Below, piece by piece: positions 29,876 through 44,680 of a stretch of DNA of 64,000 nt. The stretch's first letter is position 1. Each line of letters opens with the position of its first letter. Below the pieces are notes generated by a model. That model saw only the letters and a list, made by a program, of their open reading frames with translations. It made no database searches and was not told the origin of the DNA. The position numbers were made by a program, and so were the translations under genes. This DNA comes from Escherichia phage rV5_ev158: the sequence record LR694611; one strand, given 5' to 3'.

Positions 29876-30004
29876 CACACAATCAGCTGCCCGGCTAAAG
29901 TGCTGGAAGCGCACCTATAACACATCTTTCAACTAAATTTCCTACCACCACAATCACTTACCTACCACACATGACTGTTTGCTTGTTTAGTGAGCAGTCA
30001 TGCC

Positions 30005-30033
30005 TTGACATTCTTGCCTATCCTGATAAAATT
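30005..30033 (+). promoter_or_regulatory. sigma70-like promoter TTGACA-16-TAAAAT reading into ORF-free DNA
   Basis: -35 at 30005-30010, -10 at 30027-30032; no ORF of 60 aa or more on either strand for about 2.2 kb downstream. Confidence 0.45.
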
Positions 30034-31382
30034 AAGTTCTTCTCTTTTCTTTTACCGAGTAATTCGGGTTTTCTGTTCTCTTCGGTTTGAAGGGGTATGG
30101 AGATACACCTGAGTGAACAGGGTGAACAACCGAACCATTGGCTATGGCATTAGCATGGCGAAGCGGACGGGTGACGAAAGAGGGGCCGGAGGACACCAGT
30201 CACTGCCATATGATATATGGGTGATAACCTGAAGAGTCTGAATAAGTGTTTAAGTACCAGTCAGAGGAAAAGGTGAATGGTAGCCGAAGGGGGATGGGGG
30301 GTTTCTTGTATCTTTAATTTGTATATTATGTATACACTTGTAAACCAATCTCATCTGAATCTGTTTACCACACAAAGCGGATAGAGACAAATATCACCTA
30401 TTAAACTTGAATTATTTATAGAAAATACCACAACACCACTTAAGTCTTTGATTTTACACACAAATCCTACAGATATTCAACCTCCATATTTAACATACTT
30501 GTAACATATTCCATACTCTACCTGTCTGATCAATTTCCCCAACTACATTCTCATATTTTCCCTGTCTGTACTACCCCTGCCCCGCCGGGAGTCCCGTCAT
30601 ATCTGGCTTTCCAGCAAATATCACACCCACAAATATCATTGCCTGAAGAGGGTTTCATCCCATAATACCTGCCTTACCTGAAGAGCGCTTCATACACCAC
30701 GTAAATTTTTTAATTGACCTCCCCCTGCCCCGCCGGAGAGGTTGGCTTTTCCCACACAGACCTGAAGAGTCAGCCAGAAATATCTGAACAGGCCCAATTC
30801 TACCACGATTTTGACCTGACCTACAGGGAGGCCCGAAGGGTCTAGCTTTCAGCTAGAGTCCTTGCAGGACCTACAGGAGCGCTGCCAGGCGGACGGAATG
30901 GGAATACTTCTCATTCTTATAACAATTCTCAAATATCGAGACAGTGAGAGAAATTAATAGGCCAGGCCGTTCACACAGTGGCACAACATTTGCAACCTAT
31001 TTTGGGTGGATGAATGAGAATACCTATCATTGTGAGAACTGTTATCATTACGGGCAATTTAACATAATACCCATTATGCGCACCACCGGCGATACATACA
31101 GGGATTGATAACATGGGTTACTGTTTACGCACATAACAATTATATTTCTTACTATTTGTGTGGGATATAGTTAGCAGCCGATAGATTAGATATTAACCTG
31201 CAGACTTCTGACCGTCCAGACGTCTAAACGCCCACACACCAAGGATTATACATACACTCCTGAATGTAAACAGGGCCGCAAAAATGCTACCATACAAGCT
31301 TGTAAATTTTTCATGCAGCACTTGACAAAGAGGAGAAAAACTTGTCTGACATAATGTGACCTAACTGACACAACATGACACT

Positions 31383-31471
31383 TTTACACACCTATTAGTT
31401 TACACACTGGATTGTTTACATTCCTGATTGTTCACATGCTAACCATTTACATGATTGACTGTTTACACACC
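31383..31471. repeat. iteron-like array, six copies of (T/A)GTT(T/C)ACA spaced 14-16 bp
   Basis: TTTTACACACC, AGTTTACACAC, TGTTTACATTC, TGTTCACATGC, CATTTACATGA, TGTTTACACACC; further TGTTTAC copies near 31121, 31265 (inverted), 31871, 31924, 31973. Confidence 0.6.
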
Positions 31472-31479
31472 GATAATCA

Positions 31480-31773
31480 GCCATGCCATTCGTTTGCATG
31501 AAAACAATTAACAAGATAACAATCGACAAGTTAATAATCTTTCGCTGGCTATGCCAGGTGACTAGGTCACCCCTTCGGGCGTTCCTATGACATAATATAA
31601 AAGCAGGGCAACTATTAGCAGATCTATAGTTGCCTTGCTTGTTATGTCATGATTAACTAAATACAAGGCAACTATGATCTGATTAATAGTTTGCAGACAA
31701 ACTATCACGGGGGTGATGGTTACTGCTTTTATATTATGTCGCGACTCCGTCGCGCCATGCCATTCGTTTGCAT
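31480..31773. repeat. 20 bp perfect direct repeats flanking a palindrome-rich 274 bp module
   Basis: GCCATGCCATTCGTTTGCAT at 31480-31499 and 31754-31773; between them a ~66 bp imperfect palindrome (31586-31652, centre AGATCT), GCAACTAT/ATAGTTGC inverted repeats and hairpin CGCGACTCCGTCGCG. Confidence 0.6.
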
Positions 31774-32380
31774 AGTTGCCTTATTGTTACGAATAAAACA
31801 ATTGCATTGTTAATGATTTCTTATCTTTCTCTTAGTCATCTAATGATTCCAGTCAGTATAGTAATGTACAGTAAACATTAGACGACTAAAGATTTCTCTG
31901 TTTATGATAACTCATCTTGATAATTTCGGACTGTTTACGAAAAATGTTGACACCTGAGCTGATTTATGTTATGCAGTTTACACGAATAATTATTTTATGC
32001 AGGTATTGACTATTCCGTTATTCTGTGGTTGGAATAAATACTTTGCAGGCTATAGAATGGCGTGCGTACGTGAATTCTGAGATCTGGCGGCTATAGTTAT
32101 ACTCGATTTTTCGCGTAGAACACGCTTTCGATGCTGTGTAAGTGTATGACTTATAAAGATTTTTAGTTGTTGACAAGATATTGGAGATGTGCATCAGGTT
32201 AAAATTTGTGCAATAGCGGCATTACGTGCACTTTTGGGAGAGAAAACGGGTAAAAATGGACTTGCTACCACACAATGAAAAATTATGCAATAGTTATTTT
32301 CCATGTATATTTGTACAGTATGTGGGATTGATGGCTAGTCAATTATTCCACTTGCCAGGTAGGGCCGTTTATGGTAGGAG

Positions 32381-32404
32381 AAGAGCAGACAAAAAGAAAG
32401 GGGC
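32381..32404 (-). terminator. Rho-independent terminator for the minus-strand block
   Basis: AGGGGCCTAAGCCCCT hairpin; on the minus strand it is followed by a T-run (plus-strand AAAAAGAAA upstream). Confidence 0.6.
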
Positions 32405-32433
32405 CTAAGCCCCTTGATAATTCAGTTAAAAAA

Positions 32434-32853
32434 TTATAATGATTCGTATATTTCAAAAATCCGATTTGCCAGGTCGTTACGGTAGCGGAATTTTTCCTCA
32501 CGTTTGATCATAAGATCTTTATAGCCGTACTCTTTAAGCACTTCATTAACTTTATGGCGGCATACTTTCATATTATCCTGCGCGTCACCAATAAATCTGT
32601 TGCTATGGTGCATGGCTTTAATTTCTTCTTCCAGGACCAGGGCAACTATGCGGACCGGATCAAGCTGATAGGCGGTAACATCCATGCGGCATTGTAAACG
32701 GCTTTTTACGTCTGCCACCGGATATACTGCAACCTCTTCCCCGTCAACATTGATAATAATTAGTTTACCATCGATTTCGAATCCTTTCGCCGCCGGACCG
32801 TGACAAAAAGCGTTATCAAAGCTATATGCCGGATTATTAGATTTAATGTTCAT
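32434..32853 (-). CDS. hypothetical protein
   Basis: 139 aa; last gene of the minus-strand block. Confidence 0.5.
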   Translation of the reverse strand: MNIKSNNPAYSFDNAFCHGPAAKGFEIDGKLIIINVDGEEVAVYPVADVKSRLQCRMDVTAYQLDPVRIVALVLEEEIKAMHHSNRFIGDAQDNMKVCRHKVNEVLKEYGYKDLMIKREEKFRYRNDLANRIFEIYESL

Positions 32854-33594: not shown

Positions 33595-33812
33595 AGTGTT
33601 TTCCTCTCTTCTGGTTGTTGTGTGGGCACCTTTGCCCCTTCAAGATAAATGTTACCCCACCCCCTGGCAGATGTCAACGGTTTTTATAGTTCTTATATGA
33701 CAGGCAGGCCTGGTGATTGTCTCCCCCTGTTCCCAAGTGCCGCCCGTTTAATAAGAATAGCAAAAGGGGCCGAACAAGTCAACCCCAAAATCAGTACCAA
33801 AACACTTTTTAT

Positions 33813-36059: not shown

Positions 36060-36114
36060 GATGATTTACCTCTCTTTATTTTCATAATTGGGGGCCTTTT
36101 CGGCCCCGCCAGGT

Positions 36115-42207: not shown

Positions 42208-42606
42208 TTATTCGTGGGCGCATGTCACAATGTGCTTTTTATAGCCCAGGTGGTCAGCAAGTGCCGACAAAAACTCTTCTTCGTAGATCCAGCCGTCGGC
42301 AGTGATCCCCATAGCATTTAATGCACTCTCAAGTGCTGCGTTAGCTTTATCGTAACCGTGACCGCTCGCCTTGCCGCCAGTATAACCGTACTTATTGTTC
42401 TTGTTGTCGTGAATCCAAAACACGCAGTAGTGAGTGTTACCACTGGCGGCGGCATAATACCGGATCTCAGCTACTTCGTGCAAATTATTGTCATCATCCA
42501 GGCCCACCAGATTATAAGCCTTGTAAAATCCACGATCACGGCGGCAGTTCTTGACATCAGAAAAAGAAAAGTCCGCATTATCAAAATTAAAGGTAGTGGT
42601 TTTCAT
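42208..42606 (-). CDS. hypothetical protein
   Basis: 132 aa. Confidence 0.5.
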   Translation of the reverse strand: MKTTTFNFDNADFSFSDVKNCRRDRGFYKAYNLVGLDDDNNLHEVAEIRYYAAASGNTHYCVFWIHDNKNNKYGYTGGKASGHGYDKANAALESALNAMGITADGWIYEEEFLSALADHLGYKKHIVTCAHE

Positions 42607-42669
42607 GATTTTATCCTCTTAGTGTCTTTTGCGATTTCAGTGTATTTTGTGTCAGACCATATGTCAACA

Positions 42670-42867
42670 TTATTTTTTATTAAACCAGTGGTTGATCTGA
42701 CCTTTTGTCAGGGCGCAACGGTTAAGCTGTTGCAGGGTATAGCTATGACCGCGACGAAATTTATAAAGGCCTTGCCCGTTGTTGATGGTTACATCCACCC
42801 GGCAAATCACTTGATTGGTGACCACCTGGCGAGTGTTGCGACGTACTTTAATTCCGTAGGCGTTCAT
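42670..42867 (-). CDS. hypothetical basic protein
   Basis: 65 aa. Confidence 0.4.
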   Translation of the reverse strand: MNAYGIKVRRNTRQVVTNQVICRVDVTINNGQGLYKFRRGHSYTLQQLNRCALTKGQINHWFNKK

Positions 42868-42962
42868 GATTTTTTATCCTCTCTGTTAATTGGTGTGGTG
42901 TTGTTCACCTTGCGAGGATAAGAATAACAAGAACTGTCCGAGCTGTCAACCATTAGTTAAAA

Positions 42963-43130
42963 TTATTTTTTTGGGTAGAATTCTCCAGCCGCCGCCCCTG
43001 CCAGGTTAACCATCATTTTTTCGTACTCTTCTTTATGTTCCAACGCTCCCGCCATAGCCTTTTCAACCAGGGCGATAGCCTCAGCGTCATTAATAGCTAC
43101 ATTTTCCAGGGGGATCATATTACCTTCCAT
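42963..43130 (-). CDS. small protein, 55 aa
   Basis: AGAGGAGGT 7 nt upstream of ATG 43130; below ORF-track cutoff. Confidence 0.4.
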   Translation of the reverse strand: MEGNMIPLENVAINDAEAIALVEKAMAGALEHKEEYEKMMVNLAGAAAGEFYPKK

Positions 43131-43673
43131 TTTTGTACCTCCTCTTCAATTGTTACCTATCCTATAGCATAGGCCCACCAGGTTTGCAAGCCTTCATTCT
43201 CTCCTACCTGGTCAGTTAGGCCCTGCCAGGCTGGCCCCGCCAGGTTGCAGCGGTCAGCGCATCAGGTTAGAATTTTTTTTTTTGAAAAGTGTTGACAGCG
43301 GCCCCGCCAGGTGGCAAAATATACCTATCGAAAGGACGGCAGGCACCGGTGACGGGGGAGACAACCACCGGGGATGGGCGCTGCATGAAATGAGAACGAT
43401 TATCATTATCGTCTAAAAATTTATGCAAAAACTTCTTGCTTTCTTTGTCCTGTGTGTTACTATAATAACAAGCCGGGGCAGTAGGGGCCGGGAGACAATC
43501 ACCGGGCCTGCCCGTTATTCTGCAAACGAGAATGATTATCATTCAAAATTCTAAATGAGAACTCCTCGCATTTAATAAATTTAATTAGCACGCTAATTAC
43601 CCTACGTAACAATTTCCTATAAAATAGTATCCACTAAAATATTCCCATATAGAAATTTTAAAAATCCATTTCT

Positions 43674-43836
43674 GAAAACGAAAAATCGATTTCGTCCCCA
43701 AAAATTTCAGGTCGAGAGCCGGAACGATTTCCGGAAAATCCGATTCAGAAAACGAAAAACAGATCGAGTACTGAGAAATTTATCGAGAAAAATTTTCAGA
43801 AAATTCAATCTTTGAAACGAAAAACAGATCGAGTAC
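43674..43836. repeat. direct repeats GAAAACGAAAAACAGATCGAGTAC (two near-exact copies plus one degenerate)
   Basis: Copies start near 43674 (degenerate), 43747 and 43813; period about 66-73 bp; no convincing ORF. Confidence 0.55.
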
Positions 43837-44147
43837 TTGGAAAGCTGCGCCACAACTTCAAGGTAGTGGTTGGATTATTACTATAAAAGGTCAAGGGTAA
43901 GTGGGGGAAGTTCTAGTAGAAGGGTGTGAGCATGTGCGGGAAATCTGTAATGGTGGTCTGGAATATGGTGCAGACGATAGGATGAGTGGTTCATCTCGTC
44001 GTGCCTGCTCTGAAAAATCCATTTTAGTTTTCGATCCATTTTCTGATTTTCTAAGGATTTTAAAATATCCTGGTAGGTAAAATATCAAAAGGAGGAAATC
44101 CATTTTAGAAATCCTCCTGATCTCTGGCAACCTGATAACTTAAAATA

Positions 44148-44480
44148 TCAGGCTCCCAGTGTGTTCTTTCCTTTATACAACCGTAAGGGTATAGTTTTTG
44201 TAACAGTCCATCTCCCCAGCCCTTCCCAGTTCCAGTTGTAGGCATGGTACCCGGTTACGCATGCACTGCTGGAGTGATCATAGGCATAAGAGAACGCTAT
44301 ACGCACCAAATGAAACCAGTCTTTCCACGGTTGTGGTCCGTAAGCTTTTCTCCAACACCGACACAAGCTAAATGTCTCAAGAATAGGCAGGATAACAAAT
44401 CCATACACCGCCACCAGAATAGCCAACGCAATGATTGTCAGGAATACATACCCTGCAGTTGAAACGATGATCTCTGTCAT
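44148..44480 (-). CDS. membrane protein
   Basis: N-terminal TM VFLTIIALAILVAVYGFVILPIL. Confidence 0.5.
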   Translation of the reverse strand: MTEIIVSTAGYVFLTIIALAILVAVYGFVILPILETFSLCRCWRKAYGPQPWKDWFHLVRIAFSYAYDHSSSACVTGYHAYNWNWEGLGRWTVTKTIPLRLYKGKNTLGA

Positions 44481-44680
44481 TTGTCGTCCCCTTTCTTATG
44501 GATATAGATGTGAGAGCCTGCCTGTATATAAATTTCTCGACCATCTTCTGCAAAGATATGAAATACACGATCACCTTCATACTCGATACGTGATATCTTC
44601 ATAATGGTCTTTCCACCTGGGATGCGGATCTCGTCCCCCACAGCGATGTTCCATGCAGATTTAAGCTTAAACATCTGCAC
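44477..44680 (-). CDS. hypothetical protein
   Basis: 67 aa. Confidence 0.4.
   Translation of the reverse strand: MQMFKLKSAWNIAVGDEIRIPGGKTIMKISRIEYEGDRVFHIFAEDGREIYIQAGSHIYIHKKGDDK

Follow-up and report, generated by a model that had tools for sequence, protein, structure and literature searches.

Among promoter-dependent phage origins, the primary origin of T7 consists of the tandem promoters 1.1A and 1.1B followed by an AT-rich region, and oriF, oriG, and oriE of T4 combine a promoter with an unwinding element, with iterons at oriE. Iterons of plasmids and lambdoid phages typically measure 17 to 22 bp. Here, we describe a gap of 1017 bp without a gene in Escherichia phage rV5_ev158 (LR694611), at positions 43131-44147 of the 64,000-nucleotide stretch that was analysed (the window), which matches Escherichia phage rV5_ev168 (LR694610.1, Vequintavirus) at 100% identity, window positions being those of that record less 74125. 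The gap is almost certainly a conserved non-coding control region. Its anatomy most resembles that of promoter-activated phage origins, with predicted tandem promoters, AT-rich DNA, and iteron-like repeats, and it carries candidate operators for the host iron sensor Fur. That these parts together make up a Fur-gated, transcription-activated, iteron-type origin or control core is a tentative model, plausible and short of probable.

As at the T7 and T4 origins, same-direction tandem promoters are followed here by AT-rich DNA and direct repeats; the predicted promoters P1′, P2, and P3 all point rightward and lie upstream of the AT-rich repeats. Furthermore, rV5 has a T7-like Pol A and a gp4-type primase-helicase, and skew analysis failed to locate its origin (PMC3606486). 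The differences are that the promoters are of the host sigma70 type, that the three repeats are long, that predicted Fur operators stand in between, and that the origin itself is a prediction. With plasmid and lambdoid iteron origins the gap shares direct repeats in one orientation, at least three in number, adjacent to an AT-rich region and with extra classes of short repeats nearby; it differs in having no adjoining initiator gene, no DnaA boxes, and units three to four times longer. The features are as follows.

43161-43189, minus strand: predicted sigma70-like promoter of the leftward gene 43130-42963.
43219-43235, 43233-43249, and 43300-43316: cluster of GGCCCYGCCAGG motifs, which flank a T-run at 43269-43281.
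43292-43320, plus strand: P1′, predicted promoter (−35 TTGACA, 17-nt spacer, TG-extended −10 CAAAAT).
43334-43384, plus strand: GC-rich element 2a, core GGGGGAGACAACCACCGGGG, behind P1′ and a paralogue of 2b.
43392-43410: Fur box 1, minus strand reading GATAATGATAATCGTTCTC, 17/19 to consensus.
43436-43466, plus strand: P2, predicted promoter read from the sequence (−35 TTGCTT, 19-nt spacer, −10 TATAAT).
43472-43524, plus strand: GC-rich element 2b ("RNA-2"), GCCGGGGCAG...GGGAGACAATCACCGGGCCTGCCCGTTATTCTGC, behind P2.
43528-43546: Fur box 2, GAGAATGATTATCATTCAA, 15/19 to consensus, 7-1-7 core cGAGAATgATTATCA.
43545-43650, plus strand: AT-rich linker, 73% A+T and 6.6% G.
43554-43572: degenerate box 3, AATGAGAACTCCTCGCATT.
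43613-43640, plus strand: P3, weak promoter candidate found by eye (TTTCCT 43613-43618, 16-nt spacer, TAAAAT 43635-43640).
43648-43843, plus strand: three iteron-like direct repeats of 66-74 bp, core GAAAATMCGATTYnGAAAAYGAAAAAYaGATCGAGTAC.
43846-44010, no strand assigned: variable spacer, 33.5% G and 13.7% C on the plus strand, so that a leftward RNA is C-rich and G-poor.
44011-44149, plus strand: right-hand block, ATCCATTTT three times (44017, 44034, 44098) and TAAAATATC three times (44061, 44078, 44141).
44078-44159, minus strand: terminator of the upstream leftward operon, with a hairpin at 44159-44124, a hairpin at 44118-44090 (AGGAGGA...TCCTCCT), and then UUUUGAUAUUUU.

A conserved non-coding gap

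The preliminary description of this DNA had pointed to an ORF-poor stretch (open reading frame, ORF) of about 1 kb inside a minus-strand gene block, with no convincing ORF in it, and both points hold at a length of 1017 bp. The gap is bounded by well-supported minus-strand genes: the left neighbour has its start codon at 43130 and the ribosome-binding site GAGGAGG at 43144-43138, and the right neighbour has its stop codon at 44148. The surroundings are a long run of small minus-strand early genes of unassigned function; for ten flanking proteins, the PHROGs matches were all to families of unknown function, and no Pfam domain was found.

GenBank records differ from one another in the ORFs that they call within the gap. 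The comparison with related phages for insertions and deletions, proposed in the preliminary description, was made by aligning 10 Vequintavirus genomes. It placed 1- and 2-nt indels at 43846-44010, where they break the frame of rV5 ORF199, and none in 43331-43545. The DNA of rV5 ORF198 (43267-43542, minus strand) is nearly invariant within Vequintavirus. In other phages its frame meets early stops on conserved DNA, at codon 7 in anhysbys and codon 8 in KpS11, and stops at codons 26-27 in PVP-SE1, GAP31, and 4MG. A Pfam scan gave no match for ORF198 or ORF199. Because the frames are broken by indels and stops although the DNA is conserved, we read the gap as non-coding, and its ORFs as spurious gene calls to be taken out of annotations. 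As a related observation, PVP-SE1 gp202/gp203 (locus L005, 2601-3028) and GAP31_043A/043 (locus L006, 2651-3050) are annotated over the three-repeat array. GAP31_043A is flagged by its own annotators for a "poor ribosome-binding site", and these four are probably not genes.

Segment identities from the same alignment were as follows.

43131-43221: low identity, large deletions.
43222-43330: 76.8% invariant columns.
43331-43545: mean identity 97.8%, 93% invariant columns, zero indels.
43648-43845: mean identity 95.1%, the three repeats, zero indels.
43846-44010: mean identity 77%, 43% invariant columns, 1- and 2-nt indels.
44011-44120: mean identity 94.9%, right-hand block.

The surrounding 16 kb shows ~94% identity among the same phages, and the gap is the most conserved non-coding DNA of the early region. 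In a distant blastn search, 43435-43588 was matched at 72-88% identity in Seunavirus (PVP-SE1, GAP31, 4MG), Certrevirus (CB7, F4M1E), Mydovirus (Mydo, KpS11), Henunavirus (Hena1), and Phapecoctavirus. The layout likewise recurs in Seunavirus, Certrevirus, Mydovirus, Henunavirus, and Avunavirus, and partly in Phapecoctavirus. In 9/9 representatives read, the elements stand on one strand (in the window the plus strand, opposite to the flanking genes) and in the same order, as follows.

1: a small plus-strand ORF, then a promoter and the ~95-nt RNA-1 (genera other than Vequintavirus only).
2: a sigma70-type promoter, hexamers constant, spacer diverged.
3: a GC-rich element of ~50 nt, near-invariant GAGACAAWCACC and then TGCCCGYYATTCTG.
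4: one to five palindromes of 19 bp, AATGAGAATgATTMTCATT.
5: a further promoter.
6: three direct repeats of 66-74 bp.
7: short AAACCATTTCG-type and AAATATCA-type repeats.

In Vequintavirus, item 1 is missing, and the module of items 2-4 is duplicated instead. This duplication is the pair of ~137-bp tandem units described earlier. The pair is real (134-136 bp from start to start), but the units are only 59% identical (85/145 columns), and their identity is concentrated in GGGAGACAAYCACCGG and the GAGAAYGATTATCATT block (43392-43407, 43528-43543). The GC-rich dyad and this block, previously taken as one object, are separate things, the block being a Fur box. That identity had been overlooked, as had the 66-74-bp repeats, the ATCCATTTT/TAAAATATC triplets, and the minus-strand terminator.

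The small plus-strand ORF that heads the module in the other genera (60-140 aa) is known as PVP-SE1 gp201, GAP31_044, KpS11_190, anhysbys gp079, and CB7_124 (L005 2083-2265; L006 2069-2260; L008 1071-1256; L004 2066-2332; L007 897-1319), and could be a protein partner of the module.

Fur boxes, predicted promoters, and repeats

The blocks GAGAA(C/T)GATTATCATT pointed out earlier coincide with Fur boxes and, judged by their sequence, are very likely Fur operators. The hosts of these phages are all Enterobacterales, which share one Fur consensus. Box 1 is the top match in the window to the 19-bp consensus GATAATGATAATCATTATC (PMC4506495), and 0/30 Markov simulations reached 16/19. The phage-family consensus AATGAGAATgATTCTCATT departs from the 7-1-7 core TGATAATnATTATCA by one mismatch per half-site, and the 7-1-7 core of 4MG, TGATAATgATTATCA, is perfect. 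Other genera carry one to five boxes at the equivalent place. Among 185,579 species-representative genomes (GTDB), the perfect palindrome AATGAGAATNATTCTCATT occurs at no fewer than 120 loci in widely different phyla; by our arithmetic, ~9-17 loci are expected by chance under uniform base composition. For the 107 ORFs starting ≤350 bp from AATGAGAATNATTCTCATT among the matches listed, raw Pfam counts were FUR 6, Fe(III)-type SBP 8, ZnuA 4, TonB Plug 4, FeoB 3, FeoA 2, FTR1 2, and Zip 2. Since it flanks fur, feoAB, TonB-receptor, and metal-transporter genes, AATGAGAATNATTCTCATT marks a Fur-family operator context in bacteria. What sets the present boxes apart from familiar ones is their place: they lie in a virulent phage and not before an iron gene, within predicted short non-coding transcripts and just 5′ of the next promoter. 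In the literature, we found no description of Fur boxes in non-coding DNA of a virulent phage. Box 1 is also overlapped by a weak minus-strand promoter found by eye (TTGCAT 43428-43423, 18-nt spacer, GATAAT 43404-43399).

The plus-oriented TTGACA reported at 43292 is present and belongs to P1′, which has 10/12 hexamer matches, the TG, an A/T tract upstream, and a predicted start at ~43327. Its −35 is unchanged across the 10 Vequintavirus genomes, and its GTGTTGAC fits the Certrevirus early-promoter core (PMC7344957). P2, with a predicted start at ~43471-43473, was overlooked by the promoter scan because its spacer is 19 nt. At its position, PVP-SE1, GAP31, KpS11, CB7, Hena1, and anhysbys have TTGATC/TTGCAA/TTGACC, a 16-17-nt spacer, and TATTAT/TATATT/GATAAT. 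P3 equivalents are clear elsewhere (TTGACA..TGaGAAAAT in PVP-SE1/GAP31, TTGACT..GATACT in KpS11, TTGTGA..CATAAT in Hena1). At both P2 and P3 the hexamers are retained between genera while the spacers have diverged. The leftward promoter has the −35 TTGCAA (43189-43184), a 17-nt spacer with CCTGGTGGGCC, and the −10 TATAGG (43166-43161). As its segment is deleted in several Vequintavirus relatives, it appears to be dispensable or redundant with the TGCAACCTGGCGGGGCC copy at 43249-43233. It is rather likely that the plus-strand promoters yield short non-coding early transcripts.

The cluster of CC(C)GCCAGG motifs seen earlier is real, except that the copy at 42996 lies inside the gene 42963-43130 and that at 36104 in a separate hairpin. 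Counted as the reverse complement CCTGGYGGGG with at most one mismatch, there are 12 matches in the window against 3.5 expected, and 0/100 shuffles reach 12; five fall at 42996-43311, and exact copies stand at 43235, 43302, and 36104. Most of these motifs belong to the early promoters, leftward and rightward, where they form GC-rich sequence in the spacer or next to the −35, and orthologous promoters in other genera have comparable GC-rich CCTGGGGC/GGCCC spacers. The exact CCCCGCCAGG at 36104 lies in the hairpin 36088-36113 (GGGGCC-TTTTC-GGCCCC) between two minus-strand genes, which is probably a terminator or RNA-stability element and not a promoter motif. A kinship of CCCCGCCAGG with the E. 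coli I-E CRISPR repeat (Racr-like) was dropped, a matching hairpin being absent by eye, and the Chi-like CCTGGTGG is just 7/8 and unconserved.

The three long repeats lie where GC content is lowest in the region (0.33-0.35 across 43400-43849). Three same-orientation repeat units, with the core GAAAATMCGATTYnGAAAAYGAAAAAYCGATCGAGWAC, were found in 30/33 related loci by nhmmer with a unit profile; Tandem Repeats Finder did not detect the 66-74-bp units in the gap because they are too diverged. Folded as RNA, the repeats are no more stable than shuffles (z = −0.5), which favours a role at the DNA level. Of the sequences in the right-hand block, ATCCATTTT is present 6 times across the whole window, where 0.83 would be expected, and the three copies of TAAAATATC are the only ones in the window; at the equivalent place, PVP-SE1, GAP31, KpS11, Hena1, and CB7 have AAACCATTTCG two to three times and AAATATCA three times. 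The minus-strand terminator folds at −37.3 kcal/mol (z = −5.96; 0/200 shuffles fold equally well), and slur16 has a compensatory GGAGAA/TTCTCC change in its stem. Leftward transcription from the upstream operon should, on this predicted fold, stop before reaching the repeats. As a side observation, the spacer 43846-44010 keeps a strong plus-strand bias of G over C in 10/10 Vequintavirus genomes despite sequence drift; its composition, not its sequence, seems to be under selection. Its C-rich, G-poor leftward RNA would suit Rho-dependent termination.

Explanations for the shared layout

In the favoured model, host RNA polymerase would initiate at the tandem sigma70 early promoters that point rightward, two or perhaps three in number, copy a short GC-rich leader, and then encounter the candidate Fur operators. 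Past them it would run into the AT-rich stretch, the three iteron-like repeats, and the further short direct repeats, and the terminator on the far side would shield this array from the upstream leftward operon. The repeat/AT-rich core may serve as the origin of replication, or as a DNA site of another kind that a phage protein assembles, and incoming transcription may activate or prime it as at the promoter-dependent T7/T4 origins. Fe-Fur on the boxes would gate that transcription and couple the module to host iron, a regulatory logic that we guess at. Fur binding, promoter firing, and the repeats as an origin are what we infer from the arrangement. The preliminary description had offered a regulatory hub, a second origin, or an RNA gene cluster. 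The first is borne out by conserved sigma70-type promoters on both strands, by Fur operators recognised from their sequence, and by the terminator; for the second, the anatomy fits (tandem promoters, AT-rich stretch, iteron-like repeats), but neither an initiator gene nor a DnaA box is adjacent.

Several observations weigh against this model. No cognate initiator gene adjoins the gap among the ten flanking proteins, the DnaA-box search gave a single 7/9 match (43627-43635) that is not conserved, and the published skew analysis of rV5 has no signal at this region (PMC3606486). The spacer of P2 is 19 nt long, and P3 is weak in Vequintavirus. The Fur boxes overlap no strong promoter; they lie at +55 to +100 from the P1′/P2 starts and 15-40 bp upstream of P3. 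In Phapecoctavirus, the downstream repeats differ. Finally, module copies also stand elsewhere, for example upstream of an ordinary gene, which suits a transcription leader better than an origin-specific role.

The last point leads to the chief alternative, a small non-coding RNA (ncRNA) locus, which is possible and on the present evidence somewhat doubtful. Here, P1′ and P2 (and P3) would make short early RNAs whose exposed GAGACAAWCACC works in trans or as a leader in cis, Fur would set the amount or length of the RNA, and the repeats, instead of being an origin, would belong to a longer ncRNA or serve as a protein sponge. The GC-rich element very probably is transcribed. In every genus examined, conserved promoters stand immediately before conserved non-coding elements, and this much of the RNA gene cluster proposed earlier is plausible. 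No other piece of the gap is conserved as widely as element 2b (nhmmer E 1e-15 to 1e-23), and 2a, invariant in Vequintavirus, scores E ~1e-12 against the family profile. By profile search, the promoter-element(-box) module is multi-copy, with two plus-strand copies in the gap and extra copies with boxes elsewhere in Klebsiella-type phages, and it is always promoter-proximal, including on the minus strand at 33695-33740. Single-sequence minimum free energy (MFE) folds of the ~50-nt element have two parts in common, an outer helix of the AUAGCGGG/CCCGCUAU type and an inner hairpin exposing the loop GAGACAAWCA. In a cleaner 15-sequence alignment, the outer helix was paired in 87.5% of cells compared with 32-60% in controls made by sliding it, and it shows many changes from G-C to G-U, which are workable on this strand alone.

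Against this explanation, RNAalifold on a 25-sequence MAFFT alignment of the element gave no consensus structure, and covariation in the outer helix equalled the shuffle mean, with one doubly changed pair, in the 15-sequence alignment. The MFE z-score of the element is just ~−2 (2a: −2.1). Because there is no consensus fold and covariation does not exceed that of shuffles, the claim of a proven RNA structure was dropped. In Rfam 15, the window has no match at the gathering threshold, the gap has chance-level hits only (E > 0.9), and three related loci have none; ARAGORN found no tRNA or tmRNA. No plus-strand intrinsic terminator-like site was found in 42600-44600, the 66-74-bp repeats are unstructured as RNA, and a search of the window for complementary targets gave none.

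Comparison with described RNA systems is also mixed. Like HK022 put and lambda/P22 nut, the GC-rich element is short, conserved, multi-copy, and placed right after early promoters, and the inner hairpin predicted for rV5 shows a GACAA pentaloop as in P22 boxB. In contrast, the loop-closing pair varies here (W = A, T or C), no counterpart of boxA was found, and covariation does not support the fold; the boxB-like pentaloop was rejected because the closing pair is not conserved. The pseudo-ToxI repeat RNA of Pectobacterium phage PhiTE is transcribed in infection (PMC3475682). It too is a non-coding locus made of repeats, and PhiTE belongs to the same subfamily, but here the period is 66-74 bp, there is no similarity to ToxI, and no RNA structure is predicted. 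A ToxI or pseudo-ToxI identity was rejected, the ToxI-like period being ~36 nt and the PhiTE escape locus lying elsewhere.

The ncRNA explanation also draws on RNA-1, a second conserved element of other genera. RNA-1 (~95 nt, promoter-driven) is not in the window; it lies immediately upstream of the module in the other Vequintavirinae genera and Phapecoctavirus (L005 2318-2412; L006 2308-2405; L008 1305-1405; L004 2373-2470) and reads GCCACCCCACGGCGAAAAGGCGGGGCTAAC...GGAAGGTGGATCGCCGGTAG, then TTTGTAAAGA twice. RNAalifold predicted 18 pairs, one of them compensatory (GC in five, AU in four). A pseudoknot between a loop CCCC and a downstream GGGG looks possible, and Rfam gave no match.

A plain operon boundary is improbable. 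In it, a terminator would close the upstream early operon and promoters would serve the downstream one. The Fur boxes would do no more than titrate host Fur, as a decoy whose copies multiply with the replicating genome, and a phage transcription factor would bind the repeats and so time early and middle expression. A strong minus-strand terminator does stand on the right and a leftward promoter on the left, and TAAAATATC resembles the late-promoter-like motif TggTAaAAtA of rV5 (PMC3606486). More Fur-like boxes occur in another ORF-poor island at 30899-31047, which suggests that box number matters more than position. However, far less than 1 kb would suffice for a boundary, the segment with the leftward promoter is the least conserved part of the gap, and a decoy would not account for elements so strictly ordered and oriented, nor for boxes so closely linked to the GC-rich element across genera.

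A packaging (pac) region, with the direct repeats as small-terminase sites as in lambda cosB or P1/SPP1 pac, is very unlikely. In its favour are several classes of short direct repeats with A/T tracts, GATC in most repeat cores, a circularly permuted rV5 genome that implies headful packaging (PMC3606486), and two GenBank records that begin within the gap. Against these, the terminase genes are far away and the region lies within the early block, the Hena1 repeats lack GATC, two record starts among 248 matching records are near chance, and promoters and Fur boxes have no role at a pac site. Least credible of all, to the point of dismissal, is that the gap encodes small proteins (rV5 ORF198, ORF199, and their counterparts elsewhere): ORFs are annotated here in several GenBank records, and an internal ATG at 44103 has GGAGGA just before it, but the annotations are inconsistent from record to record, ORF199 is disrupted and the ORF198 frame is stopped in other genera as described above, Pfam matches are absent, and the ribosome-binding-site-like GGAGGA (~44112) is one arm of the minus-strand terminator hairpin.

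Related sites and meaning for the subfamily

Comparable elements occur outside the gap. A third GC-rich copy without a Fur box lies at 33695-33740 on the minus strand (GGGGGAGACAATCACCAGGCCTGCCTG) behind TTGACT-17-TATTCT; after it (feature 33695-33782) come a second promoter, TTGACA at 33677 with CTGCCAGGGGG in its spacer, and the gene 33594-33322. The other ORF-poor island, 29876-32434, is 2.5 kb of non-coding DNA where plus- and minus-strand gene blocks converge. Its Fur-box-like sites number four and form two pairs, at 30899-30931 and at 31015-31047. Within 31383-31467, a 22-nt repeat of the TTTACA type recurs four times at 16-bp spacing; a 20-nt sequence is repeated exactly at 31480 and 31754, and CTMCCCCTGCCCCGCCGG occurs twice. 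In the rV5 paper, it is a grey "non-coding" box (PMC3606486).

Tandem arrays of three to five Fur-type palindromes at 23-29-bp spacing (AATGCGAATGATTCGCATT, AATGAGAATGATTCTCATT) occur in other viral contigs and in Phapecoctavirus (L030 7030-7120; L044 1880-2010; L004 2589-2700). In unrelated IMG/VR contigs (L017 1200-1320; L053 1840-1985; also L018, L032, L034, and L036), a Fur-type palindrome, GAGAATGATTCTCATTCAA, stands 10-100 bp from two to three DnaA-box-like TGTGGATAA/TTATCCACA. This non-coding region adjoins a Toprim+AAA_25/DnaB_C primase-helicase gene in two lineages, few contexts having been examined. It looks like an origin region with a Fur box and lends weak support to the origin model.

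Homologues of the region were sought among plasmids and in E. coli genomes, and a single mislabelled phage genome was the only match. PLSDB CP057073.1, a 137,565-bp E. coli "plasmid", is 99.4% identical to the phage region and evidently is an rV5-like phage genome assembled together with its host. Seventeen GenBank records (MG0656xx) carry the name "Campylobacter phage" and give Campylobacter jejuni as host; here they match rV5-like phages of E. coli at 96-98% identity, and their host assignment looks doubtful.

The components of the gap, namely sigma70 promoters, Fur boxes, iterons, and a terminator, are each known in kind; their conserved combination in a virulent phage subfamily is new by our searches of Rfam and the literature. 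Papers on these phages, including those on rV5, CB7, and PhiTE, do not describe the region as a Fur-box site, origin, or transcript locus. The origin and early regulatory logic of rV5-like phages have so far lacked description, and the rV5 genome paper sought an origin and found none. The gap also flags candidate new phage ncRNAs.

rV5-like phages (Vequintavirinae) are widely used in phage-therapy and biocontrol collections, and the gut and infected tissue are normally limited in iron. Through the conserved, near-consensus Fur operators, it can be tested directly whether phage development depends on host iron status, and therapeutic efficacy could be affected in such iron-limited sites. That this subfamily uses the host iron sensor as a licensing switch, with Fe-Fur deciding whether early transcription enters the iteron/AT-rich origin core, is a speculative idea that we regard as unlikely. 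If true, the phage would adjust its DNA replication, or a linked ncRNA programme, to the iron status of its host, and no origin or control region gated by a host metalloregulator would have been described in a lytic phage before.

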